Assembly: GCA_051746185.1 (NCBI GenBank)
Contig: JBNJEV010000009.1
Span: forward strand, 2,240-66,239
Direction of reading: 5' to 3'
Length of the DNA: 64,000 nucleotides
From: Bacteroidota bacterium
GTDB taxonomy: Bacteria > Bacteroidota > Bacteroidia > Bacteroidales > GCA-2748055
Part shown: positions 740-31,137 of the stretch, piece by piece
Layout of the letters: every line of letters begins with the position of its first letter
How positions within the stretch are numbered: the stretch's first letter is position 1
Notes under the pieces: model-generated
What the model was told of the DNA's origin: nothing
Databases searched by the model: none
Seen by the model: the letters and a program-made list of their open reading frames with translations, nothing else
Made by a program: the position numbers and the translations under genes

Positions 740-2298
740 TACAGCGGGATGTTGGTGTGTTTCTTGGGCGGATTCATATCCTTCTTCGTGGCCAGGGTCT
801 GCAATGCGCGCACCACCCGGAACCTTGTGTTCCTGGGCTCGATCACATCGTCAATGTAACCGTACCTGGCCGCCTCATAGGGATTGGAAAATTTTTCCCT
901 GTATTCCTTCTCCTTTTCCTCAAGGAACTTCATCATTTCCTCACGTTCTTCAATGGATTTCAGGGTTTTGCCCTCCAGTATCTCAATGGCTCCTTTAGGT
1001 CCCATCACAGCGATCTCCGCAGTGGGCCATGCATAGTTGATATCCCCCTTCAGCTGTTTCGAGCTCATCACATCATGTGCCCCTCCATAGGATTTTCTCA
1101 GGGTAATGGTCACCTTGGGCACGGTGGCCTCGCCAAAGGCGAACATCAGCTTGGCACCGTGAATGATGATCCCCCCATGCTCCTGGGCGCTGCCGGGAAG
1201 AAAACCCGGAACATCCACCAGGGTGACGATGGGAAGGTTGAAACAATCACAGAAACGCACGAACCGGGCTGCCTTCCGGGAAGCTTCGATATCCAGGACC
1301 CCGGCCATGTGGTTGGGCTGATTGGCTACGATCCCCACCGGGATCCCGTTGAACTTGGCAAAACCCACTACTATGTTCATGGCATACTGCCTGTGGATCT
1401 CAAGGAATTCATGGTGGTCCACAATGGAGAAGATGACATCCTTCATGTCATAGGCTTCATTGGGATCATCGGGGATCACATCGTTCAGCAGATCCTCGAG
1501 CCTGTCGATGGGATCGGTGCACTCGCCGGCCGGTGGATCTTCCAGGTTATTCTGGGGCATATAGCTGATCAGTTTCCGGATCATCAGCAGTCCTTCTTCC
1601 TCATCGGATGCGACCATGTGGGCCACACCCGAACGGGTGGCATGCATCCGGGCTCCCCCCAGCTCCTCAATGGAGATGTCCTCACCGGTAACGGTCCGGG
1701 TGACCCTGGGCCCTGTAACGAACATGTAGGAGGTCTTGTCATTCATGATGATAAAATCGGTGAGTGCGGGAGAATAGACCGCACCCCCGGCACAGGGACC
1801 GAACACGGCTGAGATCTGCGGGATCACCCCCGAAGCCCGGATATTCCTTTCAAAGATCTCCGCATAACCCGCCAGGCTCCTGACCCCCTCCTGGATCCTG
1901 GCCCCTCCGCTGTCGTTGATGCCGATCAGCGGGGCACCCACTTTCATGGCCTGGTCCATGATCTTGCAGATTTTCTGGGCATGTGTTTCGGATAGCGAAC
2001 CACCGAAGACGGTGAAATCCTGTGCGTACACATATACAATGCGGCCATCGATGGTTCCGTGCCCGGTGACCACCCCGTCGCCCAGGTACCGGTGTTCTTC
2101 CAGGCCGAATTCATGGGACCGGTGCATCACGAACATGTCATATTCTTCGAAGCTCCCCTCATCCAGCAGAATATGGATCCGCTCCCTGGCCGTTTGCTTT
2201 CCCTTGGCATGCTGCGCCTCAAGGCGTTCCTCTCCCCCTCCTTTCCTGGCCCGCTCACGCAGGTCGATCAGTTGCTTGATTTTATCCTGATTGTTCAT
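739..2298 (-). CDS. mmdA: Acyl-CoA carboxyltransferase (methylmalonyl-CoA decarboxylase alpha / PccB-like)
   Basis: [50 protein letters not shown] motifs; context of epimerase, OadG and biotin carrier. Confidence 0.93.
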
Positions 2299-2313
2299 GG
2301 GTCCGAATGGTAT

Positions 2314-2718
2314 CTACTGATTTCCACAAAATTCCGTAAGAACACCCAAGGTGGAAGCAGGATGAAGAAAGCCGATCCGCAGTCCCTCGGCCCCTTTCCT
2401 GGGCTCCCGGTCAATCAGCCTGATCCCCTTTTCCGAGGCCTGCTGCAGGGCTTCACCCACATGATCCACGGCAAATGCCAGATGATGCATTCCTGGACCT
2501 CTCTTTTCAATGAATCTTCCCACCGGACTATCCGGTTCGGTGGGCTCCAGCAGTTCGATCTTTGTATCCCCGATTTTGAAAAATGCTGTTCTCACCTTCT
2601 GATCGCTTACCTTTTCGATGGCATAGCACTCCAGGCCCAGGACACCCTCATAATAGCCGATGGCCTCATCCAGGTCGGTAACTGCGATCCCGATGTGTTC
2701 AATGTGTGTTGCTTTCAT
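2314..2718 (-). CDS. mce: Methylmalonyl-CoA epimerase
   Basis: IEHIGIAV, KIELLEP, GMHHLAF, FLHP, GVLTE: VOC-fold epimerase motifs; operon context. Confidence 0.95.
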   Translation of the reverse strand: MKATHIEHIGIAVTDLDEAIGYYEGVLGLECYAIEKVSDQKVRTAFFKIGDTKIELLEPTEPDSPVGRFIEKRGPGMHHLAFAVDHVGEALQQASEKGIRLIDREPRKGAEGLRIGFLHPASTLGVLTEFCGNQ

Positions 2719-2770
2719 AGGTATCCAAATTTACGCCCTCTGGAAGGGATTCGTCATGATAATTGTCATT

Positions 2771-5700
2771 TCAATGTTCCAGAGCATCATAGATCACCTG
2801 CTGGATCTCCGTCCGGACATTCATATCGATCAGCTTTGTATTGCCCTGGTCGGGATGGATCCGGTTGGAAAGGAAAACATAGACCAGATCGTATGCGGGA
2901 TCCACCCAGGTGATGCCCCCCGTGAAACCCGAATGTCCGAAACTCAGCGGGGAAGCATCATTGCATGCGGGGCCCGCGTCGATGGTATCCGTAATGGGCC
3001 GGTCAAACCCGAGCCCCCTCCGGTTGACCCGTTCATCGTTGATACAGGAACTGTACCTGGCAATGGTGGCCGGATCGATGTATCTTCTTCCTCCGTATGT
3101 TCCGCCGTTCAGGTACATCTGCATCATTTTGGCCAGGTCATTGGCATTGCCAAAAAGACCGGCTTGTCCGGAGATTCCTCCCAGCATGGCCGCGCCGGGA
3201 TCGTGGACATATCCCCTGAGAAGCTGGCGCCTGAAGAATACGTCATTTTCCGTGGGGACGATCATTTTGGGAGAGAACCTGTTCAGGGGCAGATACCCCA
3301 GGGAGGAAGCCCCCAGCGGAGCGTAGAACTGATGCCATACATAAGGATAAAGCAGGGTATCGCCGGTAATACTTTCGATCACCTGCTGCAACATATAAAA
3401 CCCCAGGTCACTGTATCTGTATTCCCGCGACTGCAGTTCAGAGTTATGGATCCAGTGATACACGGAATCCCTGATTTGCCGGTGCAGATAAAGATCCCCT
3501 GCCACCTGAACGGGATGGTCCGGGTCATAGGCTTTCATATAGGTACTGTCCGCATACCTCACATTGCGGTTGGCATAGAGTCCCTCGCCGATCCTCAGCG
3601 GATAGGTATGGGACCAGCGGTTGGAGACCAGGCCCTGTGAGGTATCCAGGGGCTCGAGGGTGGCATAGTAAAAGGGGATCCAGGACTGAAGTCCTGCCTG
3701 GTGGGTCAGGATATCGCTGATGACCAGGTCCGCCTTGTCGGAGGAATCGGGAAGCTCCAGGTAGGATCCCAGGACCGAATCCTCGTGGAACCGGCCCTGA
3801 TCCCGCAAACGCATCAGGGCGGGAAGGGTGGCTGTGATCTTGGTGACCGATGCCAGGTCATACAGGTCCGTCATTCGTACCGGTTGTCTGCCCCGGTAGG
3901 TGTGGTACCCGTATGCTTTCATCCAGACCACCTTGCCGTTCCGGGCCACCAGAAGCTGGCACCCCGGCATGGCACGTTCCCGGATGGCCTTCCGGACCAC
4001 ATCTTCCATTCTTCTCAGGGTATCCGCATTAAGTCCCACCTCCATGGGATCCGCATAGCCGAGCCTGATGGCCGGCCCGGTAAAACAGCCATCCCCTGCT
4101 GCGGCAACGGAGGCCACGGTCACGGGCAACCGGCCCCTGAAAGCAATTCCCCCGAATATCCCCTGGGCGACCAGGTCCTGGCTCAGAGGATCGTCACTGA
4201 AAGAGACGATCAGTGCATCTGCATGTTCCTGGCCGGCCAGTCTGCCGAGCGCATAGGGAGTTCCCGCCACATTGAGGACCAGGGTGGATGAGGGTTCCAT
4301 CTGTGCAATAAGATCCAGTACCTGGTCGGTGATCCCGTATTGTCTGCCCGCATGCTGGTTCAGGTCAAATAAATTAACAATGATCGTGTTATATTCCCTC
4401 AATTGCATCAACAGGTCCGACCGAATCCGATAATCCGCTGAAGGAGAGATTGTAAAGTGTTTCCCATGGACGTACAGGTCCGAGGTGACCGCAAAGGTAT
4501 GGTCTTTCTTTTCGCTGACAGTGACCGTGGCAAGCCTGGTATTTTCCAGTTCTCTCAGGGGAAGTACCGATTCCCGGTTCCTGACCAGCACCAGGGAATG
4601 CTCGACCAGCTTCCGGCGATGCAGCCGGTAACGGTCGCTGTTCAGATCTTCCAGCAGGGAATCGGTCCGGAGGGGACGGTAACGGTTGAGTCCGGCCCAG
4701 TATTTGGCCAAAAGGATCCTGCGGCAACTGGCATCGATCCTTTCCCGGCTGATATCCCCTCTCCTCACGGACTGCCGGATGGCTGAAATACCCCTTCCCA
4801 CATCCGCCGGCATCAGGAGGATATCGTTTCCGGCCCGGACCGCCTCTACCTCACATTGACCGGGTTCGAAGAAATCACTGATCCCCTTCATGTTCAGCGC
4901 ATCGGTGATGATCAGTCCCCTGAAATCCATCTTCTCCCTGAGCAGTCCGGTCACCACCGGCTGTGAAAGGGTGGTCGCCCGGTTCGGTCTGTCATCCAGT
5001 GCAGGCACATGAAGATGAGCCATCATGATCCCGGTCAGGCCCCTCTCGATGGCCTTTTTGAAAGGATACAGCTCGATGGCATCGAGCCTGGACCGGTCAT
5101 GCGGGATCAGCGGGAGGGCATGATGCGAATCGGAACCGGTATCCCCGTGACCCGGGAAATGCTTGGCGCTCACCAGCAGTCCGTGATCCTGCATCCCCCG
5201 CATCAGGGCCACCACCTTCCCGGCAACATTCTCACGCTCTTCTCCGAAGGAACGGATGTGGATAACCTGGTTCAGGGGGTTGTTATTGATATCGGCCACG
5301 GGAGCAAAATTGAGATGGACCCCGATCCGTTTCATCTGTCCGGCCATATCCTTTCCCATCCGGTAGATCATTTCGTTATCGGTGATGGCGCCCAGGCTGA
5401 TCTGTTTAGGATAGCTGATCACCTGTTCGAGTCTCATCCCCAGGCCATTCTCTCCATCCATGGCCATCAGCAGGGGCACTTCCGATACCGACTGCAGATG
5501 GTTGGTCAGCGTGGCCTGGGAAACGGGATCTCCCCTGGAAAAAAGGATCCCCCCGATCCCGTATTCCCGGACCAGGTGGACAAGGGCTTTCTGATGGCCT
5601 TCGCCCATGTTTGAAAAGGCCTGGACCATGATCATCTGGGCAATGCGTTCCTCCAGGGAAAGCTCCCGCATCACCGAATCGGCCCATGCGGTATCGGATT

Positions 5701-5984: not shown

Positions 5985-6197
5985 ATGATGGACTGTAAGA
6001 AGGACCGGAACCAGAACCAGTGTAACTGCAGCTATCCATGCGGCAGAAAGGGGATTTGCTGCGACTGCCTCGCATACCACAGGCGCCTGGGCGAATTGCC
6101 CGCCTGTTATTTTCCCGGCGACATAGAGCCGGGCTATGACCGTTCGGTGGAGAACTTCATCCGCATCTACCGGGAGAGGGGCGTTTGCTGGAACTGA
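5985..6197 (+). CDS. Small Cys-rich conserved protein (DUF6485-like)
   Basis: [32 protein letters not shown] pattern; fills the gap between two minus-strand genes. Confidence 0.75.
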
Positions 6198-6198
6198 C

Positions 6199-7410
6199 TC
6201 AGAGGCCCAGTTTCTCGGCAATGATGCGGGGGACCGCCTCCCTGTGTACCACCAGAAAGAGGGTCTTTGCCCTCATGTAGGCCTGTGAGGCATGCATGTA
6301 TCCCTTGTAAATATGGGTGCCTGTTCCCCACGAATTCTTCACCAGGTAAAACCGGTTCCCGGACTGATCCCTGGACAGGCCTGTAATGTGCATCAGGTGG
6401 TCGTCGGTGGTCTGGTAGTTGTCAAATGCACGCTGGCGGATCTTCTGGGTGATCTTTTTTTCCGCTTTCGGAGTTGAGAAATCATAGAACAGTGTACTCC
6501 GCTCCGAATCGGAAAGCTCGTCCCACCGGGCCCTTTCCAAACCGCTCAGATCCTCGATCTCCTCGGAGGGCAACAGGGCCAGACCGCTTTTCCAGTCAAA
6601 TCCCCTTTCTCCCACATCCGCATCCCAGCAGACCGTGTACCCGTTTTCCAGGGCATGATCCAGCACTTCCATCATCTCGTCCAGGGGAACATTCTTGATG
6701 GTTCCCCAGCTCCAGTTATCGGGGATCTCAAGGATGAAATCCTGGTAAAACGGATGGTGGGTAAAGGATCCGATCATCACGTAATCTTCCGGGTCCAGGC
6801 CCAGCTCCTCCGAGAATGAATGGGGGGTGTAGACCGTACCTTCATACAGGAATGTATCGGGTTCTCCGCCCAGGTAAGCATCCAGGATCCCCTGGTATCC
6901 TTCTTTCCATACCGGGGACAGCATTCGGTTGGGATTCCTGATCACCTGTTTGATGTATCCGTCCAGCACCGCGCTCATTTCCCCGTGGACCGGCAGGGAA
7001 TCCCCGGTCCGGAGCCCGGTATAGGCACTCTGGGGCACGATCCCGTCCCTTTTCCAGCTGTTGAACACATCATGGGTCAGTCCCCCGGCCCCGAAGTTGA
7101 TGGTCCCGTGCATTCGCACATACTTGACGGCCTTGTCAAGGTAAGCCTGCCGCACAAAGAACATTTCCGACAGATCATAGGTGCCCTTTCCGGTGCGGAG
7201 CAGCTCGGACTCGATAAAACTCACCGAAGCAAAGCTCCAGCAGGTGCCCGACCTGTGCTGGTCCTTTACGGGAGTGGCAGGAATACTCTTCTCAATGGTG
7301 AAATGATAGCCCTGTTTTTCTTCTTTCTGAATCTCCTGAGCAGCAAGTGAGCTGCCGACAATAATTCCCAGGAGGATGATCCATGTCCCGGTTCTTTTCA
7401 TTTTCTTCAT
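6199..7410 (-). CDS. pepC: Aminopeptidase C (C1 papain-like cysteine peptidase), exported
   Basis: KDQHRSGTCWSF catalytic Cys, TTDDHLMHI His, VKNSWG Asn; signal peptide. Confidence 0.9.
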   Translation of the reverse strand: MKKMKRTGTWIILLGIIVGSSLAAQEIQKEEKQGYHFTIEKSIPATPVKDQHRSGTCWSFASVSFIESELLRTGKGTYDLSEMFFVRQAYLDKAVKYVRMHGTINFGAGGLTHDVFNSWKRDGIVPQSAYTGLRTGDSLPVHGEMSAVLDGYIKQVIRNPNRMLSPVWKEGYQGILDAYLGGEPDTFLYEGTVYTPHSFSEELGLDPEDYVMIGSFTHHPFYQDFILEIPDNWSWGTIKNVPLDEMMEVLDHALENGYTVCWDADVGERGFDWKSGLALLPSEEIEDLSGLERARWDELSDSERSTLFYDFSTPKAEKKITQKIRQRAFDNYQTTDDHLMHITGLSRDQSGNRFYLVKNSWGTGTHIYKGYMHASQAYMRAKTLFLVVHREAVPRIIAEKLGL

Positions 7411-11163: not shown

Positions 11164-11208
11164 GTATACACTGGTTTTCTATCTGTTGAAGCTCGCAAGC
11201 TCGGTTGT

Positions 11209-11280
11209 CTTCGCAAAAGATGCCAGGTTACTTCAAAAGCATCCCGCGGTGAAATGAAAAAAGGCTCCTGAGATTCAATC
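11209..11280. repeat. Partial copy of the palindromic element at 25151-25290
   Basis: 30 bp AAAGATGCCAGGTTACTTCAAAAGCATCCC at 11216-11245 is identical to 25223-25252; the downstream flank resembles the reverse complement of the left arm of the 25 kb copy. Confidence 0.8.
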
Positions 11281-21574: not shown

Positions 21575-23533
21575 TCATTCCCGGGAAATCTTGATCACCC
21601 TTTCCTTATAGGTGATGGCCGTGTCATACAGTACAAGCAGGTAAGCTCCGTCTGCAAGCCGGGAAAGATCCAGAACCAGGGGACTGCCGGGATCCGTCAT
21701 CCGGTACACCTCCCGCCCCCTGAAATCGAACAGGGCAATCTCCTGCAGGGTGTTGTGGTTGAGCAGCTGCACATACAGTTTGTCGCTGAATGGATTCGGG
21801 CCAAGGAGATACAACCGGTCTGAAGGGATCTGCCGGACCACACTGGATGTGTTCAGCAGATCCTCGTCAGGATCGAACACCAGGTTGGCGACCAGACCGT
21901 TGATCTGTATGGTATAATCCTCGACAGGTTCGTTCTGTGACAGCCGCATTCTTTCCGTGGTACCATCGCTGTACACCACTTCCACGTCAAAGGGATTGGT
22001 GAAGAGCGGGGTATCCGGTGAACTGCCGGTCTGCTCCAGATGCAGGTAAAGTGAATCGCCCAGCTGATGCCAGAAAAGCTGGTACCGGGGAAAACCTTCT
22101 CCGTAATACCACTGCTGAAAGAAGCCTGAAAAATCGATCCCGCTTTCCGATTCGAGCAGTCTTTTGAAATCCTCCCCGGTGGCCACTCCGTTTCCGAATT
22201 GATGGAGGTAATTGCGGAGCACCCTGAAGAAAAGGTCATCCTCGTCAAGGATATACCGGATCATGTGCAGCAAAATGGCCCCTTTTTTGTAGCTGAGTCC
22301 GTAATCGAAGACCCGCCCGGGATTGTCAGCGTTTTCTTCCGGGACAAAGACCGATCCTGTGGTCTCTCCCAGGGCAATGGACATGGCATTGGACATCCAT
22401 CTGTCGGCGGCATCCTGTCCCAGGATCTGCCGGGCGGCGATATATTCCATATAGGAGGCAAAACCTTCATTGATCCATATGTCCTGCCAGTTCCCGCAGG
22501 TCACCAGGTTGCCGAACCACTGGTGGGCCAGCTCATGGGCCACAAGGAAGAAATCGAAATCCTGGATGGTGGTCATGGTCTGGTGTTCCATCCCTCCTCC
22601 CAGGGGTGCCATGACATGACCGTACTTTTCGCGCGAAAAGGGATAATCGGTCAGCAGCTCCGAATAGGTGCGGATCAGATTGCCGGTCTCCAGGATTCCC
22701 TCTTCCCAGTCGGCAAGCACTTTGTCCGAATCATACAGAAAGTTCTGCACCAGGACCGAATCGCCTGTCCGGGAAAGGGGTGCATAAAAGGAGTAGTCCC
22801 TGTAATCGGCCACCGAGAAAAAAAGGAGGTAATAGGCCATGGGATAGGTGGTCTTCCAGCTGAACACTTTTGTGTCCCCCTCCAGGTCTTCCACATCCTC
22901 CAGGATCCCGTTGGAGGCTGCCATCAGCTGATCATCGCACTCCAGGCGGGTGCGGACCGAATCGATTTTGTCTTCCAGCACCTGTTTGACGGGGATCCAG
23001 TCCTTGGCATTGAGAGGCTCCGAAAGGGTATAGGTAACCTGAAAACCGTACTGTCCGTCTCTGGCGGAATTGATCCCTGCAAAAAAGCCCCTGTCCCGGC
23101 CCGCCTCTCCCCCGTACCGGATCTTCACGGCAAATACCTCACCGGCCGACCGGGTCCTGTCAAGCGGCACAAACAGGGCCTGGTCCCTGTGCTCATAATC
23201 CGCGGTGTGAGAGAAATCAGGCAGGGAATCCCTGTCGGTGATATCGATCCGGCTGACCTGCAGCTGGTCCTGCAGTTCCAGCACCAGGGTGTCCATTGTT
23301 TGCAGGACTTCCATCAGGATCATGACTTCTCCCTCGATTTCCGTGCTCTGATTGGTCACCTGCAGATCGATCTCATAGTATTTGATGTCATAGCGGGAAA
23401 GCCACCTTTCATACAGTGGGTTCTCATAACCGGCGGCTCCACCGGGACGGAGAACACACGATGTCCGTGGCCGTGCAACCGAGAGTTGGGTCACCAGAGT
23501 GGCCAGCAGGAAATATATGGCAGTCCTGAGCAT
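21575..23533 (-). CDS. M1-family aminopeptidase with T9SS C-terminal domain
   Basis: GGMEH, HELAHQWFG, WINEGFA, YKKGA; C-terminal PNPF...GAYLL...KVIK-like sorting domain. Confidence 0.9.
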   Translation of the reverse strand: MLRTAIYFLLATLVTQLSVARPRTSCVLRPGGAAGYENPLYERWLSRYDIKYYEIDLQVTNQSTEIEGEVMILMEVLQTMDTLVLELQDQLQVSRIDITDRDSLPDFSHTADYEHRDQALFVPLDRTRSAGEVFAVKIRYGGEAGRDRGFFAGINSARDGQYGFQVTYTLSEPLNAKDWIPVKQVLEDKIDSVRTRLECDDQLMAASNGILEDVEDLEGDTKVFSWKTTYPMAYYLLFFSVADYRDYSFYAPLSRTGDSVLVQNFLYDSDKVLADWEEGILETGNLIRTYSELLTDYPFSREKYGHVMAPLGGGMEHQTMTTIQDFDFFLVAHELAHQWFGNLVTCGNWQDIWINEGFASYMEYIAARQILGQDAADRWMSNAMSIALGETTGSVFVPEENADNPGRVFDYGLSYKKGAILLHMIRYILDEDDLFFRVLRNYLHQFGNGVATGEDFKRLLESESGIDFSGFFQQWYYGEGFPRYQLFWHQLGDSLYLHLEQTGSSPDTPLFTNPFDVEVVYSDGTTERMRLSQNEPVEDYTIQINGLVANLVFDPDEDLLNTSSVVRQIPSDRLYLLGPNPFSDKLYVQLLNHNTLQEIALFDFRGREVYRMTDPGSPLVLDLSRLADGAYLLVLYDTAITYKERVIKISRE

Positions 23534-23534
23534 G

Positions 23535-24563
23535 CTAGCTGAACCGGAAAAGGGTCTGCGCGCTGTATTGCTCACCGGGTTTCAGCAGGGTGGACGGGAA
23601 TGCCAGCTGGTTGGGACTGTCGGGAAAATATTGAGTTTCCAGGCAGACAGCGGCATGTTTCCCGTAGTCGATCCCGTCTCTGCCCCGGATCCCTTTCAGG
23701 TAATTTGACGTGTAAAGCTGGATCCCCGGCAGGGTGGTAAGAACCTCCATTGTGCGTCCGGATTCCGGATCATGCAGGACCGCCACCCGGGTCAGTTCCC
23801 GTGATTCCATGGCAAGCACATAGTTGAGATCATATCCCGGTTCCACCTCTGCGATCCTTTCCCCGAGCGGTCTGGTCTGTCTGAAATCGAGCGGAGTGCC
23901 TTCCACCGTTGCAATTTTGCCCGTGGGAATGCTTTCCCCATCCAGTACCGTATACCGGTCAGCATCCAGTGTCAGTTCATGCCGGTGGATGGTCCCCCGG
24001 CAATTGTTCAGATTGAAATAGCTGTGGTTGGTCAGGTTCACATGGGTGGGCCGGTCGGTTTCCGCCCTGCAGTGCACACCCAGTTCATTCTGATCATTCA
24101 GTGTATAAAGCACTTCCGCGATTACATTTCCCGGATACCCTTCCTCGCCGTCCCCGCTATGATACTTCATTACCAGGCTGATCTGCTTCCCGGAAACATC
24201 CGTATGTGCCTTCCACATTTTTTTATCGAATCCCCTGAATCCCCCGTGGAGATGATTGGACCCTTCGTTGGCAGAAAGCCGGTAGGTCCTTCCCTCGATG
24301 GAAAATTTTGCACCTCCGATCCGGTTGCAGAACCGGCCGATCATGGCACCCAGATAGGGCTGGTCCCCCAGGTAACCGTCAAGCCGGTCAAATCCGAGGA
24401 CAACATTGCCGGGTTCATGGTCCCGGTCCGGCACGATCAGGTCCGTAATGATCCCCCCGTAATCGAGTACCCTCACTTCCATTTCCCTGTTATTTCTCAT
24501 GACATACCGGTGTACTTCACCCACAGAAGGGATGGTTCCGAAATGTTCCTTTTCAATGGTCAT
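23535..24563 (-). CDS. galM: Aldose 1-epimerase (galactose mutarotase)
   Basis: GRFCNRI, NHLHGG, EEGYPG, NLTNHSYFN, CLETQYFPD. Confidence 0.95.
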   Translation of the reverse strand: MTIEKEHFGTIPSVGEVHRYVMRNNREMEVRVLDYGGIITDLIVPDRDHEPGNVVLGFDRLDGYLGDQPYLGAMIGRFCNRIGGAKFSIEGRTYRLSANEGSNHLHGGFRGFDKKMWKAHTDVSGKQISLVMKYHSGDGEEGYPGNVIAEVLYTLNDQNELGVHCRAETDRPTHVNLTNHSYFNLNNCRGTIHRHELTLDADRYTVLDGESIPTGKIATVEGTPLDFRQTRPLGERIAEVEPGYDLNYVLAMESRELTRVAVLHDPESGRTMEVLTTLPGIQLYTSNYLKGIRGRDGIDYGKHAAVCLETQYFPDSPNQLAFPSTLLKPGEQYSAQTLFRFS

Positions 24564-24731
24564 ATTTTTTGAATGTTTTTTTCAGGAAATAAAGATAGAA
24601 ATTAAAATCATCACCTGCACCGACCGATATATTTTCCCGGAACACATAAACAGGAAAACCGAAGAGCTCTTTGCACAGGCGTAAACCGAAAAGCCTTTAA
24701 GAGAGTAGGTGTGATCAAACTCATTCAGAAA

Positions 24732-24908
24732 ATGGAACCAGCATTATTCACGAACACTTTTAAAGAGGTCCCCGTTCAGGAACAGCAGCGCCTCAATGGC
24801 GGGGTATTGCCCTTCCTTCTGGCGATCGGCGTGGTTGCGGTCACCGAGATCATCAGGGACTGGGATAATTTCAAGAACGGACTCACCGGAGAACCGGAAG
24901 AGAAATAA
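24732..24908 (+). CDS. Double-glycine-leader peptide 1 (class II bacteriocin-like precursor)
   Basis: MEPALFTNTFKEVPVQEQQRLNGG|VLPFLLAIGVVAVTEIIRDWDNFKNGLTGEPEEK; upstream of HlyD and C39 transporter. Confidence 0.85.
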   Translation: MEPALFTNTFKEVPVQEQQRLNGGVLPFLLAIGVVAVTEIIRDWDNFKNGLTGEPEEK

Positions 24909-24946
24909 TGTACAATGATCAATGTAATTTTATAATAATCAGAAAA

Positions 24947-25141
24947 ATGGAAAACACAACACTTTTCAGCACCCTGGATGCCGGACAGATGAGACAGGTC
25001 AACGGCGGCGGATTCGCCTACGATGTGGGCAGGGTACTCCGGTTTATCTCGATTGCCGGCCTTAACAATGGTCCCCTTACAGCATTGGCACTCGCTGACT
25101 GGGATGTTAATAAGGCCCTCAATGAAATGGAAAACAACTAG
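24947..25141 (+). CDS. Double-glycine-leader peptide 2 (class II bacteriocin-like precursor)
   Basis: MENTTLFSTLDAGQMRQVNGG|GFAYDVGRVLRFISIAGLNNGPLTALALADWDVNKALNEMENN; ATG preceded by an A-rich initiation region. Confidence 0.85.
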   Translation: MENTTLFSTLDAGQMRQVNGGGFAYDVGRVLRFISIAGLNNGPLTALALADWDVNKALNEMENN

Positions 25142-25150
25142 AATTATCAG

Positions 25151-25290
25151 GATTGTCTCATAAGGCTTTTTTGATTTTCTTACTGAGGGATGCTTTGTCG
25201 TAACGTGCTAATTGACTTCGTCAAAGATGCCAGGTTACTTCAAAAGCATCCCTCAGATGATGTCAACCAATCACTTTTGAGACAGGCTCT
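25151..25290. repeat. Nested palindromic element (MITE/REP-like or structured RNA)
   Basis: Outer IR TGTCTCATAAG (25154-25164) / CTTTTGAGACA (25274-25284), 10 of 11 match; inner perfect 14-bp IR CTGAGGGATGCTTT (25183-25196) / AAAGCATCCCTCAG (25243-25256); partial copy at 11.2 kb. Confidence 0.8.
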
Positions 25291-25321
25291 TTTTTACTAT
25301 TCTTAAATAATACCCGATGCG

Positions 25322-25444
25322 ATGAGAATCAAAAAACCACGCCGGCGGGACATCATTATCTTCATTGTAACCCTGGTGGTCTTCGGTGCCATCGTCACTT
25401 ACTGGGACCAGATCAAGGATTTCATTGCCGGCATTTTTGCCTGA
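25322..25444 (+). CDS. 40-aa single-TM peptide (candidate immunity/accessory peptide)
   Basis: Manual translation MRIKKPRRRDIIIFIVTLVVFGAIVTYWDQIKDFIAGIFA*; its TGA overlaps the HlyD ATG (TGATG); below the ORF-track size cutoff. Confidence 0.7.
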   Translation: MRIKKPRRRDIIIFIVTLVVFGAIVTYWDQIKDFIAGIFA

Positions 25445-26574
25445 TGGACCAGCTGGAGGACAGTACACTGGACCTGATCTACAGGCGAAGTGTCCGTTCC
25501 TTTCACCTGGGTTATGTGGTCATCCTGATGATCACCGGGTCCTTTGCGGCCCTGCCCCTGGTGAAAGTAGATGTGGTCACCACCACCGCCGGAATGATCA
25601 GACCCCTGAAAGAACCTGCCGGGATCCTTTCTCCCATTTCGGGGATCCTGGACAGTACCATCCTTGCCGGCAACATGGAGGTGCACGCGGGGGATACCCT
25701 GGCCTGGGTCAACAAAGACCGGGTTGAAACCGGGATCCGGGAATACTCCGCGCTGATTGTCCGGAACAGTGCACCCATTCAGGATATCAAAAGCATCCTC
25801 AACGGACAGGAGCCTGAAAGGACAGGAAGGTTCATCCAGTCCTACAGGAATCACATTTCATCCCTCACCTGCCTTCAGATCAGGAAGAGACTCCTGGGGA
25901 AAGCATATCATACCGCCACCGAATTATTCACTGCCGGGGTAATCCCCCTGCACGAATTTGAGCAGGCAGAAACAGACTACCGGTTGATCTGTGCAGAGAT
26001 CAACGATCTCGAACACCGGTACAGGAGCCAGCTGCAGGAAGAACTCTACCGGCTTGAACAGGAAAATACCGGATACCGGCGGGAGGTCAACCTGAACAGA
26101 TCCATGCTGCACAATTACTATATTGTGGCTCCCACCTCGGGCACCATTCACAATTGTCCGGGACTGACCGCCGGATCGGTGATCCATTCCGGCATGTCAC
26201 TGGGATCCGTTTCACCGGAAGGAAGCCTGGTGGCTGAATGTTTTCTCGATCCGGGCAGTATCCAGGGAGTCGGGAAAGGGACCAGGGTCCGCCTCCGGTT
26301 TAACGGATCAGGGTACGGTCGACAGGCCCATGTGGAAGCCAGGGTCGATCATATCGAAAAGGATGTGATCCTGAAAGACGGGGTACCGGTCTACCGCATC
26401 AGGAGCACCCTCGACTCCCCTTTCATTTCCCGGGATGGCGGAGAAAGAAAACCGGTGGTGAAAGGAATGACCTTCACCGCCAGTTTTGTCCTTTTCCGCC
26501 GGTCGCTCGCCTCCCTTCTCCTGGAAAAGGTGGCCCGCCGGCTGGATCCCGGGGCTTCAATACCCGAAAAATGA
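25444..26574 (+). CDS. HlyD-family membrane fusion protein
   Basis: N-terminal TM, LPLVKVDV...GMIRP, lipoyl-like halves (ILSPISG, IVAPTSGTI), coiled coil, KGMTFTA. Confidence 0.9.
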   Translation: MDQLEDSTLDLIYRRSVRSFHLGYVVILMITGSFAALPLVKVDVVTTTAGMIRPLKEPAGILSPISGILDSTILAGNMEVHAGDTLAWVNKDRVETGIREYSALIVRNSAPIQDIKSILNGQEPERTGRFIQSYRNHISSLTCLQIRKRLLGKAYHTATELFTAGVIPLHEFEQAETDYRLICAEINDLEHRYRSQLQEELYRLEQENTGYRREVNLNRSMLHNYYIVAPTSGTIHNCPGLTAGSVIHSGMSLGSVSPEGSLVAECFLDPGSIQGVGKGTRVRLRFNGSGYGRQAHVEARVDHIEKDVILKDGVPVYRIRSTLDSPFISRDGGERKPVVKGMTFTASFVLFRRSLASLLLEKVARRLDPGASIPEK

Positions 26575-28661
26575 GAAGGAACAGAAAAGTGGCAATCAGA
26601 CAGCGTGACTCGTCCGACTGCGGACCTGCATGTATCGCTTCTGTAATGGCCTATTACGGGATCAGGGCATCCGTGGCGAGGATCAGGCAAATCGCCGGGA
26701 CGGACAAACTGGGAACCTCCATGTGGGGATTGGTCAGGACCCTTGAAAAATTCGATTTTGAAGCAAAAGGGCTGAAAGGATCGGCAGAACATCTGGACAA
26801 GCTTCCCCTGCCGTTTATCGCCCATGTTGAACAGACCGGAGGAGAACATCATTATGTCTGCGTGTACGGGATCAACGGGAAGCACCTGAGGGTGATGGAT
26901 CCCGCAGAGGGAAAAATACGAAGATGGAGCCACGGGGACTTCAGAAGGAAATGGAGCGGTGCCGTGGTGGCCATGGTACGGCAGATTCAGGCTCAAATGT
27001 TCCGGGAAACCCCGACAGGTCGGAACAGGATCATTTCTCTTCTCAGGCCAGTCTGTAAACCGGTGCTCCAGGCCATCATAGCCGCTGTCATTTACACCCT
27101 GCTGGGACTGTCCACCTCACTGTATATTGGAAAACTCACCGATCATGTTTTTGTAACCCGGAATACGGGTCTGCTGAACCTGATGAGCATCACCATGATC
27201 CTGATCACCCTTGTGATGATCTATATGTTCGCCATCAGGAGCCTGCATGTACTGAAAACCGGGCAGGTGATCGATAACCAGCTAATCACCTCCTATTACC
27301 GCCACCTGTTCAGAATGCCCCAGCGATTCTTTGACGGCATGAAGACGGGAGAGATCATCTCCAGGATCAACGATGCCATTAAGATCAGGGGATTCATCAA
27401 TGATGCAGCCATAGGTATTCTGGTGAACTTTCTGATCCTTTTCTTCTCCTTCGGACTGATGTTCATCCTGTACTGGGAACTTGCCCTGATGATGCTCGCC
27501 ATCATCCCCCTCTACTCGGTCATTTACTACTGTTTCAACCGCAGGAACAAGAGGATCGAGCGAGAGGCCATGGAAAGGACGGCTTCCCTGGAAAGCCAGC
27601 TCGTGGAATCACTCGAGGCAACCTCACACATCAAACAGCACAACCTGGAAGGGATCGCTTTCAGAAAGACAGAAGGCAGACTGAACCGGCTGCTGGATAC
27701 CGGTTACACCTCGGGCATTAATTCCATCACCGCCATGGGAGCAACCGAGCTGGTCAGCCGTCTTTTCACCATCATCCTGCTGTGGGTGGGTTCTGGTTTT
27801 GTGATCAGCCAGTCCATTACCCCCGGCAAGTTGCTCACTTTCTATGCCCTGATCGGGTACTTCACCGGACCGGTGAGCGGACTCATCGGGGCCAACAAGG
27901 TCTATCAGAATGCCCTGATCGCCGCAGACCGGCTGTTCGAAATATTCCACCTGGAAGAGGAACAGGTTGCCGGCCGGCCATCTTTCCCCCGGGATGAATT
28001 CGGGGATATTGTATTCAATAATGTTTCCTTTGCTTACGGTTCCAGGGGAACCATATTCCGGAACCTGGACCTGACCATCCATGCCGGAAAAGTGACCGCT
28101 ATCACCGGCCCCAGCGGATCGGGAAAATCAACCATTGGCTCCCTGATCCAGCACCTGTATTTCCCGGATGAAGGAAGCATCACCATCAATGGATATAACA
28201 CCCGCTATTTTTCACTGGAGAGCATACGTTCGATGATCGGGATCGTTCCCCAGCAGATCAGCTTTCTGACCGGTTCCATTCTGGAGAACATTGCTCCCGG
28301 TCAGAAAAACCCCGATGTGAAAAGGACCCTTCACCTGCTGAAGGCGGTGGGACTGCTGCCCCTGATCGAATCGCTTCCCGGGGGACTGGAATCCGTGCTC
28401 ACCCGAAACGGGACCAATCTTTCAGGCGGAGAGAGGCAGCGGCTGGCGCTTGTCCGTGCCCTCTACAAAAGACCCTCCCTGCTGATCCTGGACGAAGCCA
28501 CTTCCTCCCTGGACCCGGTTTCGGAAGTGCATGTAAACAAATTGCTGCTGACCCTCAGGGAGTGTTCCCAGACCATCCTCCTGATCACCCATCACCAGAG
28601 AGAGGCTTCTCTGGCCGACGTTACTTTCTCTATGGACGGTTCATGCGCTTGTGTATCCTGA
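26571..28661 (+). CDS. Peptidase C39-containing ABC transporter (PCAT, bacteriocin-processing exporter)
   Basis: QRDSSDCGPAC catalytic Cys, HHYV His, MDP Asp; TM domain; Walker A GPSGSGKST, LSGGERQ, ILDEATS. Confidence 0.95.
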   Translation: MRRNRKVAIRQRDSSDCGPACIASVMAYYGIRASVARIRQIAGTDKLGTSMWGLVRTLEKFDFEAKGLKGSAEHLDKLPLPFIAHVEQTGGEHHYVCVYGINGKHLRVMDPAEGKIRRWSHGDFRRKWSGAVVAMVRQIQAQMFRETPTGRNRIISLLRPVCKPVLQAIIAAVIYTLLGLSTSLYIGKLTDHVFVTRNTGLLNLMSITMILITLVMIYMFAIRSLHVLKTGQVIDNQLITSYYRHLFRMPQRFFDGMKTGEIISRINDAIKIRGFINDAAIGILVNFLILFFSFGLMFILYWELALMMLAIIPLYSVIYYCFNRRNKRIEREAMERTASLESQLVESLEATSHIKQHNLEGIAFRKTEGRLNRLLDTGYTSGINSITAMGATELVSRLFTIILLWVGSGFVISQSITPGKLLTFYALIGYFTGPVSGLIGANKVYQNALIAADRLFEIFHLEEEQVAGRPSFPRDEFGDIVFNNVSFAYGSRGTIFRNLDLTIHAGKVTAITGPSGSGKSTIGSLIQHLYFPDEGSITINGYNTRYFSLESIRSMIGIVPQQISFLTGSILENIAPGQKNPDVKRTLHLLKAVGLLPLIESLPGGLESVLTRNGTNLSGGERQRLALVRALYKRPSLLILDEATSSLDPVSEVHVNKLLLTLRECSQTILLITHHQREASLADVTFSMDGSCACVS

Positions 28662-28802
28662 AAAGAGCCATGTTGATCCTCAATTTTCCCGTTTTTGCCA
28701 AAATAATTTTCAACAACCGCTTTTTCATGGGAGATAAACAATAAATTTATGCCCGATTGAACTATCGGGATGAGACTATTGTTTACCCAAAAACTAAATA
28801 CT

Positions 28803-29360
28803 ATGAAAAGAATCACCGCCATTATTTTTCTTGCCATCTTCTCCATCCCCCTCATCAGGGCACAGGAGAGCATGTTCACCATCGACGACCAGGTGTTGAA
28901 CCTGGGGATCGGGATCGGTTCGGTTTATGCTTTCGGATCCTATTACACCACCACCGTCCCCCCCTTATCCATCTCTTTTGAGAAAGCGGTCGTGGATGAC
29001 ATTTTGGAGGAAGGAGTGATCGGCGTGGGAGCCTATGCGGGGTTTACATCTTACAGGTGGACCTACTTTACTGCCGATTATGGCTATAAATATTCCAACA
29101 TTATCCTGGGGGCCCGGGGAAATTTCCACTATCCCCTGGTCGACAGGCTGGATACTTATGTAGGTGTGCTCCTGGGATACAACATCTCCATTTCCAGCAC
29201 CTGGGGAACCTGGGGCGGGGAAACATCCCCGGATTCAGGGGGCATCGCCTTTGCCGGATATCTGGGAGGCCGCTACTATTTCTCAGACCAGTTTTCCGCA
29301 TTTGCCGAACTGGGATACGGGATCTCATACCTGACACTGGGAGTGGGGATCAAGCTGTAG
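28803..29360 (+). CDS. Small outer-membrane beta-barrel protein
   Basis: Signal peptide, Gly/Tyr-rich alternating strands, C-terminal GRYYF...ELGYG...GVGIKL. Confidence 0.8.
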   Translation: MKRITAIIFLAIFSIPLIRAQESMFTIDDQVLNLGIGIGSVYAFGSYYTTTVPPLSISFEKAVVDDILEEGVIGVGAYAGFTSYRWTYFTADYGYKYSNIILGARGNFHYPLVDRLDTYVGVLLGYNISISSTWGTWGGETSPDSGGIAFAGYLGGRYYFSDQFSAFAELGYGISYLTLGVGIKL

Positions 29361-29376
29361 GCTTCCGCAGCCCATT

Positions 29377-29384
29377 TAATTTTG
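29377..29384 (+). promoter_or_regulatory. -7 promoter box (TAATTTTG) upstream of 29455
   Basis: Matches TAnnTTTG in the intergenic gap. Confidence 0.5.
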
Positions 29385-29454
29385 CATGTGTTGATCTTTA
29401 TCCTATATTTACAGAGAAACTAACCCTTGTTCCAAACTAAAAAATATCAAAGTA

Positions 29455-29940
29455 ATGAAAAAAGTCTTTTTTAAAGGTACCGCTGTGTTCATGGCCATGG
29501 TGATGCTGGTGACACAGACACAGACCCTCTCTGCAAGGGCCGCCGACATTGCGCTTCCCAGCCTGGATGAATCCGCGCTGGTACTGGATGAAGCCGCCCT
29601 GGACGAGGCCCTGGCCGAACTGAACGAGCTGGATGAATACCTCGCCGTCAATGAGAGTGTTACATTTGAAGATCTGGAATCCAGTGAGAGTGAACTGATC
29701 CTGAATGTGGACAACTCCTCGGCCCCGCTGGGAGCGGACCTGGAAGATGATCCGCCCCTGGGGATTCCCTCCTTTCTGTGGGGATGTATCCTGGGAGTCG
29801 TCGGGATACTGCTGGTCTATATCCTTACCGACGGAGATAAGGATGAAGTCAGAAAAGCTCTCTGGGGAATGCTGGTATGGATAGGAGTCTGGGTGATCCT
29901 CTATGCGGGAGTCTTTGCCGGCGCGGCCTGGTGGTACTAG
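29455..29940 (+). CDS. Exported protein with very acidic N-domain and C-terminal two-helix membrane hairpin
   Basis: Signal peptide, Asp/Glu/Leu-rich region, then PPLGIPSFLWGCILGVVGILLVYILTD and KALWGMLVWIGVWVILYAGVF...WWY. Confidence 0.8.
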   Translation: MKKVFFKGTAVFMAMVMLVTQTQTLSARAADIALPSLDESALVLDEAALDEALAELNELDEYLAVNESVTFEDLESSESELILNVDNSSAPLGADLEDDPPLGIPSFLWGCILGVVGILLVYILTDGDKDEVRKALWGMLVWIGVWVILYAGVFAGAAWWY

Positions 29941-30023: not shown

Positions 30024-30725
30024 ATGATACAATTGCTTTGCAGAACAGGGATTTTCATGGGTGTGATCTGGCTGGGCATTTTCCCTTCCCTTCACGGTCA
30101 GGAATATTACCGGATGAACGCCGATTTCACGGTCAAGATCAGGCGGAGCGACAGCACCCTGAATTTGACCAGGGGGACCGTGTTCTATGATAAGAATATC
30201 GGAGAACTGATCTACAGGATCACCTTCCCCCGGCCGGAGGTGTGGGTGATCTCCGATACTTCCATTTATAAATATCGCTCGGACACCCTTTCTGAAAGGG
30301 TCTCCATCCCCTCGGTGAATGAATTTACGGTCTTCCATCTCAGTTTGAATGCCACCATGAGCGATTTTGGTCTGAAGAAAACGATGTTCAGGGTCTCCCG
30401 GGTGGAAAAAAGGGACGACCGCGTTCTTTCTTACTGGAAGATCCCTGAAAAGATCGAATCTTCCATCGATCATGTGGTGGTGGTCAAAAAAGAGAACCGC
30501 CTGGAAAGCGTCATCATGATGGGGGATGATTCTGAAATACTGAGCAGGCAATTTTACAGGGATTACCAGCGGACCGGTGCTTTTGAATTTCCCCGCCAGA
30601 TCGTCCAGATCATTCCCGATGAATCGGGCGCGGACAATTACCAGGTCACTGAATTCAAGAATATCGTGGTCAATGACATGGATCATGATCATCTGTTCCG
30701 TTATGAACCGTCTTTATCCCGTTAG
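30024..30725 (+). CDS. Exported beta-rich protein, possibly LolA/lipoprotein-sorting-like fold
   Basis: Signal peptide; ADFTVK...GTVFYDK...ITFPRPEVWV resembles a LolA-like N-terminus. Fold is inferred. Confidence 0.6.
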   Translation: MIQLLCRTGIFMGVIWLGIFPSLHGQEYYRMNADFTVKIRRSDSTLNLTRGTVFYDKNIGELIYRITFPRPEVWVISDTSIYKYRSDTLSERVSIPSVNEFTVFHLSLNATMSDFGLKKTMFRVSRVEKRDDRVLSYWKIPEKIESSIDHVVVVKKENRLESVIMMGDDSEILSRQFYRDYQRTGAFEFPRQIVQIIPDESGADNYQVTEFKNIVVNDMDHDHLFRYEPSLSR

Positions 30726-31137
30726 AAAAAGATCCTCCCTGAAAGGAAACCTCCTGATCCTTGCAGGACTGCTGATCACCCTGTTGTCCTGCCGTGCACA
30801 AATGCATGTGGACGAAGGGCTGACGGGCCTTTTTGAAAAACGGGACACAACGGTCCGGGATTATGCTGCACCGCTCCGGGAAGCAAAAAATGATATTTCC
30901 GTCATTGCCTCGGCCGGTTTCCTGTTCTACAAAACCTTTATCTCGTCCCAGGACAACCCTTCCTGCATCTTTACCCCTTCCTGTTCGGAATATGCGGTGG
31001 AAGCCATCCAGGAGCACGGATTGTTCACGGGATGGCTGATTGCTTTTGATCGCCTGTCCCGTTGCCACGGACTGGTAAATCCCGAACACTATCCATTCGA
31101 TATGGAGAAGCAACGCTTTTATGACCCGGTCCGGTAA
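30703..31137 (+). CDS. YidD-like (membrane protein insertion efficiency factor) paralog with N-terminal signal
   Basis: FYKTFISSQD..SCIFTPSCSEYAVEAIQEHG...DRLSRC, YDPV; hydrophobic N-terminus ending LLSC. Confidence 0.82.
   Translation: MNRLYPVRKRSSLKGNLLILAGLLITLLSCRAQMHVDEGLTGLFEKRDTTVRDYAAPLREAKNDISVIASAGFLFYKTFISSQDNPSCIFTPSCSEYAVEAIQEHGLFTGWLIAFDRLSRCHGLVNPEHYPFDMEKQRFYDPVR

Follow-up and report, generated by a model that had tools for sequence, protein, structure and literature searches.

The question raised by this locus is what two small peptide genes, set side by side in front of an export operon, are made for. They lie in a 64,000-nt stretch of Bacteroidota DNA (assembly GCA_051746185.1, contig JBNJEV010000009.1, positions 2,240 to 66,239), referred to below as the window, and form with three further genes a compact cassette on the + strand, in the order pep1-pep2-sTM-HlyD-PCAT (24732-28661). 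The genes pep1 and pep2 encode precursors with double-glycine (GG) leaders, sTM a 40-aa membrane protein, HlyD a periplasmic adaptor and PCAT a peptidase-containing ABC transporter. A first-pass annotation of the letters had taken the locus for an undescribed two-component bacteriocin or peptide signal. The reading favoured here, with a probability of roughly 0.6, is that of an uncharacterised, non-cationic two-peptide bacteriocin of Bacteroidota, which would act through a receptor, rely on its own PCAT and HlyD protein for cleavage and export, and have sTM as its immunity protein.

The four genes named in the first-pass gene list are real, while the fifth, the short sTM, had been missed. The arrangement it described, two tandem precursors with leaders ending in NGG (24 and 21 aa) and cores of 34 and 43 aa, followed by HlyD and a C39-ABC transporter, was verified on the sequence, and a residue count of the translations agrees with its statement that the cores lack cysteine and carry net charges of -3 and -2. 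The gap between pep1 and pep2 is 38 nt on the same strand, so that the two genes are adjacent as in loci of class IIb (two-peptide) bacteriocins. Further along, the TGA of sTM overlaps the ATG of HlyD (TGATG) and the stop codon of HlyD overlaps the start of PCAT (ATGA), and because of these overlaps the last three genes are translationally coupled. There is one copy of each peptide gene in the genome (3.67 Mb, 200 contigs).

Both precursors have relatives, at E values of 1e-9 to 1e-34. Word-based searches returned seven for pep2 and five for pep1; a HMMER search of 1.84 billion representative sequences with the pep1 profile gave 182 clusters at E<=1e-3 (54 at E<=1e-10), and the pep2 profile gave 313 clusters at E<=1e-3. 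The gene neighbourhoods of such relatives were collected from two sides. Scanning one genome per species with two pep2 motifs yielded 25 loci, while a scan of metagenomes with DWDNFK[NA] alone yielded 128 confirmed loci, the best 80 of which served as a reverse test. In the pep2-selected genome loci, pep1 is directly upstream of pep2 in 25 out of 25; in the pep1-selected metagenome loci, pep2 is directly downstream of pep1 in 76, and in the remaining four (L038, L075, L086 and L107) the contig runs on for about 110 nt at most. Altogether, both genes are found in the same order in 101 of the 105 loci examined, and a pep1-profile match from an even draw of the phylum (genome G427) likewise has a FAYD-type partner adjacent to it. 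By this constancy of gene order pep1 and pep2 are taken to form an obligate pair, and the existence of relatives together with their ordered recurrence indicates that both are real genes rather than chance open reading frames (ORFs). The exporter travels with them: 22 of the 25 genome loci contain both HlyD and PCAT, as do 36 of the 40 loci with at least 4 kb following pep2. The precursors are thus conserved beside homologous PCATs.

The leaders carry the marks expected for substrates of such transporters. Recognition is described as depending on hydrophobic residues at -4, -7 and -12 on a short helix, with the pattern Leu(-12)-X3-Glu(-8)-Leu(-7) in ComA substrates (PMC6363468). Among the unique leader ends of the sampled loci, position -12 is L, I, V, M or F in all 75 of pep1 and all 81 of pep2, position -8 is Glu in 67 of the 75 pep1 ends, and position -4 is hydrophobic in 66/75 (pep1) and 52/81 (pep2). 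In the AlphaFold2 (AF2) models, residues -10 to -4 of both precursors are helical. The predicted leaders therefore fit the published recognition pattern.

Behind the leaders, conservation is concentrated in short boxes. The pep1 core consists of a hydrophobic helix followed by the motif DWDNFKNG; in an alignment of 27 rows D43, W44, D45, N46 and F47 are invariant and the K and G nearly so, while the leader and the hydrophobic stretch vary. The reduced motif DW..F is carried by 123 of the best 150 of the 182 pep1-profile clusters. The pep2 core begins with GFAYDVG, and in the pep2-selected set all cores start with GFAYD, which is partly a selection effect. In the pep1-selected set the start of the pep2 core varies (G/S/T/R-FAYD, SFAFD, KGFAHD, DGFAHD) with FA[YHF]D kept, and that the residue next to GG varies in this way supports a cut following the first GG. 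Models built by AF2 from alignments have a mean predicted local distance difference test (pLDDT) score of 84.3 for pep1, with helices at 15-21 (leader), 26-42 (core) and 44-52 (short), and of 81.1 for pep2, with a helix at 12-18 (leader) and a helical hairpin (23-37 and 42-63). A prediction of the complex between the pep2 core (22-64) and the pep1 core (25-58), run without controls, scored 0.04 and 0.03 against a mark of 0.32, and these values speak neither for binding nor against it. Among the sampled loci there are 87 unique cores of pep1 and 81 of pep2, with median net charges of -2 and -1, and 84% and 96%, respectively, are at or below zero; the anionic character that the first-pass annotation had seen in two peptides is thus a family-wide, non-cationic trait.

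Neither precursor belongs to a Pfam or NCBIfam family (0 families at E<=1), and Foldseek of the pep2 model against the PDB gave nothing at E<=0.001, only generic helical rows at E>=4. The nearest clusters in a protein-atlas feature search, useful as leads only, were hypothetical proteins, class IIb/ComC and Bacteriocin_IIc (scores 0.85-0.91). In some loci pep2 and sTM have a third GG-leader peptide between them (L087:672-839, L093:5449-5640 and L104:5601-5807). It is a divergent pep1-like paralogue with the box F[DN][DS]F[KV]AG, and these loci may be three-peptide versions of the cassette.

The export module is of a well-known type. The HlyD protein matches PF13437 (E 2.8e-9) and, below the cut-off of that model, TIGR01843 (E 3.9e-23). 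The transporter scores above the gathering thresholds of PF03412 (112 bits), PF00664 (157 bits) and PF00005 (102 bits), whereas its 425 bits against TIGR01193 are below the cut-off of 523.85. It aligns end to end with PCAT1 (4ry2) at E 6.3e-132, and the Cys of the DCG motif, the His and the Asp of the DP motif are conserved, as the first-pass annotation had read them. Judged from domains and alignment, it is a PCAT, and with the HlyD protein it gives the cassette the dedicated cleaving transporter and accessory protein that are found in class IIb loci. According to PMC6363468, PCATs of Gram-negative bacteria have an accessory protein and an outer-membrane factor as partners. In this genome 18 OEP domain matches are found in nine ORFs, all on other contigs, and a TolC-type channel would be supplied to the cassette in trans.

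In the L017/L090 lineage, a PD-(D/E)XK transposase gene comes after the peptide genes (L017:886-1773, L090:5326-5838); in L017 an OEP and HlyD efflux pair is next behind the transposase (1813-4472), and in L090 a CvpA (colicin V production) gene at 38-535 precedes HlyD and PCAT. One sublineage has a class I S-adenosylmethionine-dependent methyltransferase gene directly after PCAT (L019:9846-10697, L023:10014-10682, L089:4672-5157), whose place there may be due to common descent, unless it encodes a tailoring enzyme.

The gene between the peptides and the exporter is the remaining piece. The sTM protein has a basic N-terminus, one hydrophobic helix and a C-terminal WDxxK; in an alignment of 19 sequences its length is 39-40 aa, and M1, W28, D29 and K32 are invariant. 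It follows pep2 in 76 of the 83 loci with at least 400 nt beyond pep2. In the seven roomy loci that lack it, a CPBP/Rce1-like gene takes its place in four (L025, L027, L088 and L101), while neither gene follows pep2 in L026, L113 and L114. This assignment is that of Pfam PF02517, run on six loci. The type of downstream gene tracks the subtype of pep2: a CPBP gene directly follows pep2 in 6 of the 8 loci of subtype c (pattern F.LRE...DL.NY) and in only 1 of the 91 loci of other subtypes. One locus, L024, carries both sTM and a CPBP gene. The CPBP/Abi family has been proposed to serve in bacteriocin self-immunity (PMC8692603, with Kjos et al. 2010 as its reference 74). Since sTM is so placed, is coupled to the exporter and is in part interchangeable with CPBP genes, it is the likeliest candidate for the immunity protein.

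There is a suggestive, not established, resemblance between sTM and pep1. Both have the layout of a hydrophobic helix followed by W-D-x-x-K, and hhalign pairs sTM with the pep1 core in the same register at E 0.0017, with a probability of only 15%. A hidden Markov model (HMM) of the pep1 core reaches 7.3 bits on sTM at the 95th percentile, compared with 1.4 for shuffled sequences, and scores of at least 8 bits are found in 3 of 64 real sTM proteins and in 0 of 1280 shuffles. Leaderless, N-anchored proteins with a pep1 box also occur among the pep1-profile matches (e.g. P0127, P0130 and P0138). In the L094/L096/L098 lineage the protein in sTM position has a nearly complete pep1 box, a second leaderless, N-anchored pep1-like ORF lies just before PCAT (the two at L094:5314-5472 and 6108-6248), a CPBP gene lies upstream, and the HlyD gene is apart from PCAT.

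If the likeness is due to descent, sTM could be a leaderless, signal-anchored copy of the pep1 core that confers immunity by mimicry, occupying either the docking site of the two peptides on their receptor or pep2 itself. The helix-plus-WDxxK element would then sit on the outer face of the inner membrane. All parts taken jointly, this is an unlikely proposal. Were it true, the cassette would represent a Bacteroidota-wide class of receptor-directed, non-cationic two-peptide toxins with immunity evolved from the toxin gene, and the DWDNFKxG and FAYDxG boxes would be to it what the pediocin box is to class IIa.

The cassette is accessory and patchy in its distribution. Of 24 other genomes from the same genus, 7 match the pep1 profile, as do 0 of 16 from other families of the order; in the even phylum draw 6 of 401 genomes reach E<=1e-3, with strong matches only in the window's own genome and G427. 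The 25 pep2-motif genome loci are all from Bacteroidota, mostly Bacteroidales metagenome-assembled genomes (MAGs), with additions from Chitinophaga, Chryseolinea and the isolate Echinicola shivajiensis AK12. In 14 of these 25 loci the cassette is bordered by one and the same epimerase gene. In two genomes of the same genus that lack the cassette (G017 and G007), the epimerase gene and the homologue of a 196-aa ORF, which border it here, are about 100 nt apart; the 4.1-kb cassette is therefore a presence/absence difference at a fixed site. A tblastn search of 72,556 plasmids with pep1 and pep2 found no match.

Put together, the proposed course of events is as follows. Both precursors would be made with their GG leaders, and the C39 domain of the PCAT would bind the short leader helix, cut after GG and pump the cores out, acting with the HlyD adaptor and probably a TolC-type channel encoded elsewhere in the genome. 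The mature peptides are predicted to be hydrophobic, helical and neutral to anionic, pep1 as a helix of membrane length with an interfacial DWDNFKNG box and pep2 as a helical hairpin opening with the FAYDxG box. In related bacteria the two would act jointly on the cytoplasmic membrane, with a conserved membrane protein as their docking site in place of attraction by charge. This docking is suggested by the shortness and invariance of the core boxes, and receptor action, which the first-pass annotation had also proposed, is a reasonable inference from them. The producer would be protected by sTM, or in some relatives by a CPBP/Abi-type protein instead. What the sequences show directly is the gene content, the operon coupling, the pairing of the genes, the leader features, the intact catalytic triad, the accessory distribution and the presence in RNA libraries; cleavage, passage of the outer membrane, joint action, killing and immunity are the predicted part of the scheme.

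A number of observations weigh against this interpretation. The cores are non-cationic, and the GxxxG motif is not enriched: it is present in 10% of the 87 unique pep1 cores as against 26% of shuffles, and in 46% of the 81 unique pep2 cores as against 43%. The pep1 core of the window has no GxxxG, nor any [GAS]xxx[GAS] within its hydrophobic helix, while pep2 has GLNNG and ALALA. No outer-membrane factor is encoded in the cassette or on this contig. The sTM protein has no known family, with only chance-level rows in Pfam/NCBIfam (NprX at E 0.094, TatA at E 0.17), and its putative role in immunity is read solely from where its gene lies. Conservation is far higher in the core motifs than elsewhere in the peptides, which would fit a physiological role too. 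The loci are not independent, as many are from related MAGs and there are metagenome contigs that repeat genome contigs (L037 with L003, L091 with L017). Lastly, the RNA-library contigs described below do not show strand, level or ends, and DNA can occur in such libraries.

Several of these points would be accommodated if the peptides were directed at the producer itself, with PCAT and HlyD delivering both to its own periplasm or inner membrane, where they would assemble with sTM in some physiological role. The shared helix and WDxxK of sTM and the pep1 core (aligned in register), the nearly complete pep1 box in the sTM-position proteins of L094, the leaderless N-anchored proteins with that box, a cassette without an outer-membrane factor, neutral to anionic cores and invariant short motifs are all in keeping with such an assembly. 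It is nevertheless unlikely on balance, since the cassette is patchy, with its flanking genes adjacent where it is missing, CPBP/Abi genes recurrently replace sTM or stand beside it, and some loci have extra paralogous GG peptides, as bacteriocin loci do. The kinship of sTM and pep1 is also faint, as seen from the low hhalign probability and from HMM scores only slightly above those of shuffles. Export as a two-peptide pheromone, in the manner of ComC or BlpC and with a receptor encoded elsewhere, would equally make use of GG leaders and a PCAT, both of which are common to peptide pheromones. A ComC-bearing cluster is among the nearest in the protein atlas (score 0.89, a lead only), and one locus (L023) has a LytTR response regulator near the cassette. 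Against this, there is no sensor kinase or regulator beside the window's cassette, and 65 flank ORFs from 17 diverse loci include one LytTR and one sigma-54 response regulator but no histidine kinase. Peptide pheromones are typically short and soluble, unlike cores of 34 and 43 aa with hydrophobic helices of membrane length in the AF2 models, and a signal would leave both the obligate pairing and the dedicated small membrane protein unexplained, all of which makes it improbable. The two alternatives of the first-pass annotation have thus come apart: the bacteriocin has gained from the paired export cassette, its patchiness and the CPBP/Abi genes, while the signal, lacking an adjacent kinase, is the weaker.

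The conserved residues could also be seen as targets of chemistry, the peptides being precursors of ribosomally synthesised peptides modified after translation (RiPPs) whose tailoring enzyme is encoded elsewhere and whose invariant D, W, N, K and Y are modification sites. Short invariant motifs are what enzyme recognition or modification might require, and the methyltransferase gene after PCAT in L019, L023 and L089 is of a suitable kind. However, these three loci are of one sublineage, so that shared ancestry suffices to explain them, no tailoring enzyme recurs across loci or is present in the window's flanks, and RiPP-family HMMs have no match to the window peptides at E<=1; there is little to recommend this explanation. 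The two-peptide bacteriocin remains the preferred reading.

The features of the locus are collected in Table 1.

Table 1. Features of the peptide export cassette and of the stretch just before it (positions in the window)
Feature	Position	Strand	Basis
Possible 5' untranslated or promoter-proximal region of the peptide genes	24655..24731	+	contig starts in RNA libraries of two studies
pep1 precursor, 58 aa	24732..24908	+	ATG at 24732, stop ends at 24908; 24-aa leader and 34-aa core
pep2 precursor, 64 aa	24947..25141	+	ATG at 24947, stop ends at 25141; 21-aa leader and 43-aa core
Palindromic dispersed repeat in the pep2-sTM spacer	25183..25256		fold z-score, genome copies
sTM, 40-aa membrane protein, candidate immunity protein	25322..25444	+	ORF, alignment, position
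HlyD-family periplasmic adaptor (accessory protein), 376 aa	25444..26574	+	PF13437, TIGR01843
PCAT, 696 aa (C39 peptidase, ABC membrane domain, ATPase)	26571..28661	+	Pfam, PCAT1 alignment

The cassette is flanked by genes for an aldose 1-epimerase, an M1 peptidase with a type IX secretion system (T9SS) tail and a GH3 glycosidase, by YidD-like and TPR genes and by unnamed ORFs. No modifying or tailoring enzyme, TolC or regulator is among these neighbours in the window, which bears out the first-pass statement. The M1-family peptidase (21575-23575, - strand) has a C-terminal Por/T9SS sorting domain, from which the organism is expected to have a type IX secretion system. Downstream there is a 196-aa ORF (28770-29360) with a start resembling a signal peptide, then an unnamed 161-aa ORF (29455-29940) with an acidic N-terminal half and hydrophobic C-terminal segments, and both are kept beside the cassette in the syntenic lineage. 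The first was considered as an outer-membrane partner and rejected, as its homologue adjoins the epimerase gene in cassette-less genomes and its match to a Pfam outer-membrane beta-barrel family is weak (E 0.35); it lies outside the cassette. In the 186-aa ORF at 30577-31137, a YidD domain (PF01809, E 3.8e-19) is confined to the C-terminal third, and either the listed GTG start is too far upstream, which is probable, or there is an unusual N-terminal extension.

The spacer between pep2 and sTM is 180 nt long (25142-25321) and contains a 74-nt hairpin with a fold z-score of -4.71. Elsewhere in the same genome this sequence is matched at 16 places, and four of the matches extend over 52-86 nt with 90-91% identity; one copy (86 nt, 91% identity) is on another contig, and a partial one is found at about 11205-11245 of the window (G000:C9:13444-13484). 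In close relatives (L003), the spacer is only about 20 nt. The element looks like an inserted dispersed repeat of the repetitive extragenic palindrome or miniature inverted-repeat transposable element (REP/MITE) kind and does not belong to the conserved parts of the cassette. Its role as a dedicated attenuator after pep2 was considered and set aside, because it is a dispersed repeat that is missing in close relatives.

Six RNA-library runs hold part of the stretch, and four were placed on the window, all as assembled contigs. One (X12) has an error-free contig of 307 nt over 24655-24960, a second (X13) has two error-free contigs (24655-24803 and 24778-24928), and a third (X9) covers 24666-25143 with a contig of 488 nt that belongs to a related strain and shows 16 differences. 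The contigs of X12 and X13 come from two studies, and in both the first base is 24655, 77 nt before the pep1 ATG, a weak hint of a transcript start. A stretch TAtaTTTT at 24628-24635 is near, not at, the usual distance of the Bacteroidetes -7 promoter element from 24655. The parts of the operon not covered by RNA-library contigs are 25686-27995 and 28150-28900, and no inference is drawn from these gaps. Scans of 24400-29500 gave nothing usable for sigma-70 consensus promoters (8 sites versus 4.6 +/- 2.2 in shuffles) or for terminators (10 versus 6.1 +/- 2.6).

Those two-peptide bacteriocins that have been characterised are cationic, are made by Gram-positive bacteria and are taken to pair by way of GxxxG motifs. 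If the reading is right, the two-peptide class would also include diderm Bacteroidota, whose peptides are neutral to anionic and carry other signature motifs and whose candidate immunity protein has 40 aa. The five-gene unit of about 4 kb makes definite predictions: both peptides should be needed, sTM or a CPBP protein should protect, and targets should have a conserved membrane receptor. Echinicola shivajiensis AK12 carries a related cassette (L025) and is a cultured entry point. Should the target be a conserved membrane protein of Bacteroidota, narrow-spectrum tools for the phylum could follow, and the system would be a case study of hydrophobic peptides crossing two outer membranes.

Among known systems, the closest in layout are the class IIb bacteriocins. 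The lactococcin G operon, in the account given by PMC2850506, has two peptides, immunity, ABC transporter and accessory protein in one operon, and the cassette resembles it in having different precursors side by side, a small gene in the immunity position and a dedicated C39 ABC transporter with accessory protein. The GG leaders (24 and 21 aa) are within the 15-30 residues given for the class, and the cores are predicted to be helical and membrane-active. The same source states that all characterised two-peptide bacteriocins have GxxxG-type motifs. The cassette differs in that its producer is a diderm, with an outer membrane to cross going out and going in, in its neutral to anionic cores with GxxxG not conserved, in its signature boxes (DWDNFKxG and FAYDxG), and in its 40-aa candidate immunity protein of no known family. 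The conserved 40-aa membrane protein occupies the place of the class IIb immunity gene, replaced or joined by a CPBP gene in some relatives.

A link to one class IIb family is visible in distant relatives. TIGR03949 (class IIb, lactobin A/cerein 7B; curated cut-off 21.5 bits) matches 55 of the best 150 of the 182 pep1-profile clusters at E<=0.01, 20 of them at or above the cut-off, and three pep1-profile clusters have the name 'class IIb bacteriocin, lactobin A/cerein 7B family' in public records. The match spans the leader and the start of the hydrophobic core, but the model stops short of the DWDNFK box and covers neither pep2 nor sTM; the pep1 and pep2 of the window do not match it at E<=1. 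The first-pass word 'undescribed' consequently holds for pep2, where all named matches among the best 120 of the 313 are 'hypothetical protein', and has to be qualified for pep1.

Bacteroidetocins, the other obvious comparison, share the phylum, the GG leaders and a peptidase-domain ABC transporter. As described in PMC6671954, they are single, class IIa-like peptides with at least two cysteines, encoded in four-gene regions with a five-transmembrane (five-TM) protein and a thiol oxidoreductase, and that description reports no immunity protein found. Here, in contrast, there are two paired cysteine-free cores, a HlyD adaptor, which does not figure in the parts of PMC6671954 that describe the system, and a 40-aa membrane protein. 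No oxidoreductase or five-TM gene is found in the cassette's flanks in the window, which sets the locus apart from bacteroidetocin regions.

Colicin V with CvaAB-TolC is an example of Gram-negative type I secretion of GG-leader peptides. The cassette is like such systems, as outlined in PMC6363468, in encoding PCAT and HlyD-family adaptor together with the outer-membrane factor elsewhere, and unlike them in its obligate hydrophobic peptide pair and small membrane protein, and in that its TolC-type channel is inferred. As to the CPBP/Abi proteins (PF02517), their gene directly follows pep2 in seven related loci and fills the place of sTM in four of the seven, whereas the window has sTM and no CPBP gene. 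A genome mining study counts 4,494 class II sequences of Bacteroidota, and its main text does not describe this peptide family (PMC12648112); members may be listed in its supplements. None of the papers brought up by literature searches describes the pair. The architecture is familiar, which is not so for the families of the two peptides, the charge that they carry, an immunity candidate of such small size or a setting in a diderm.

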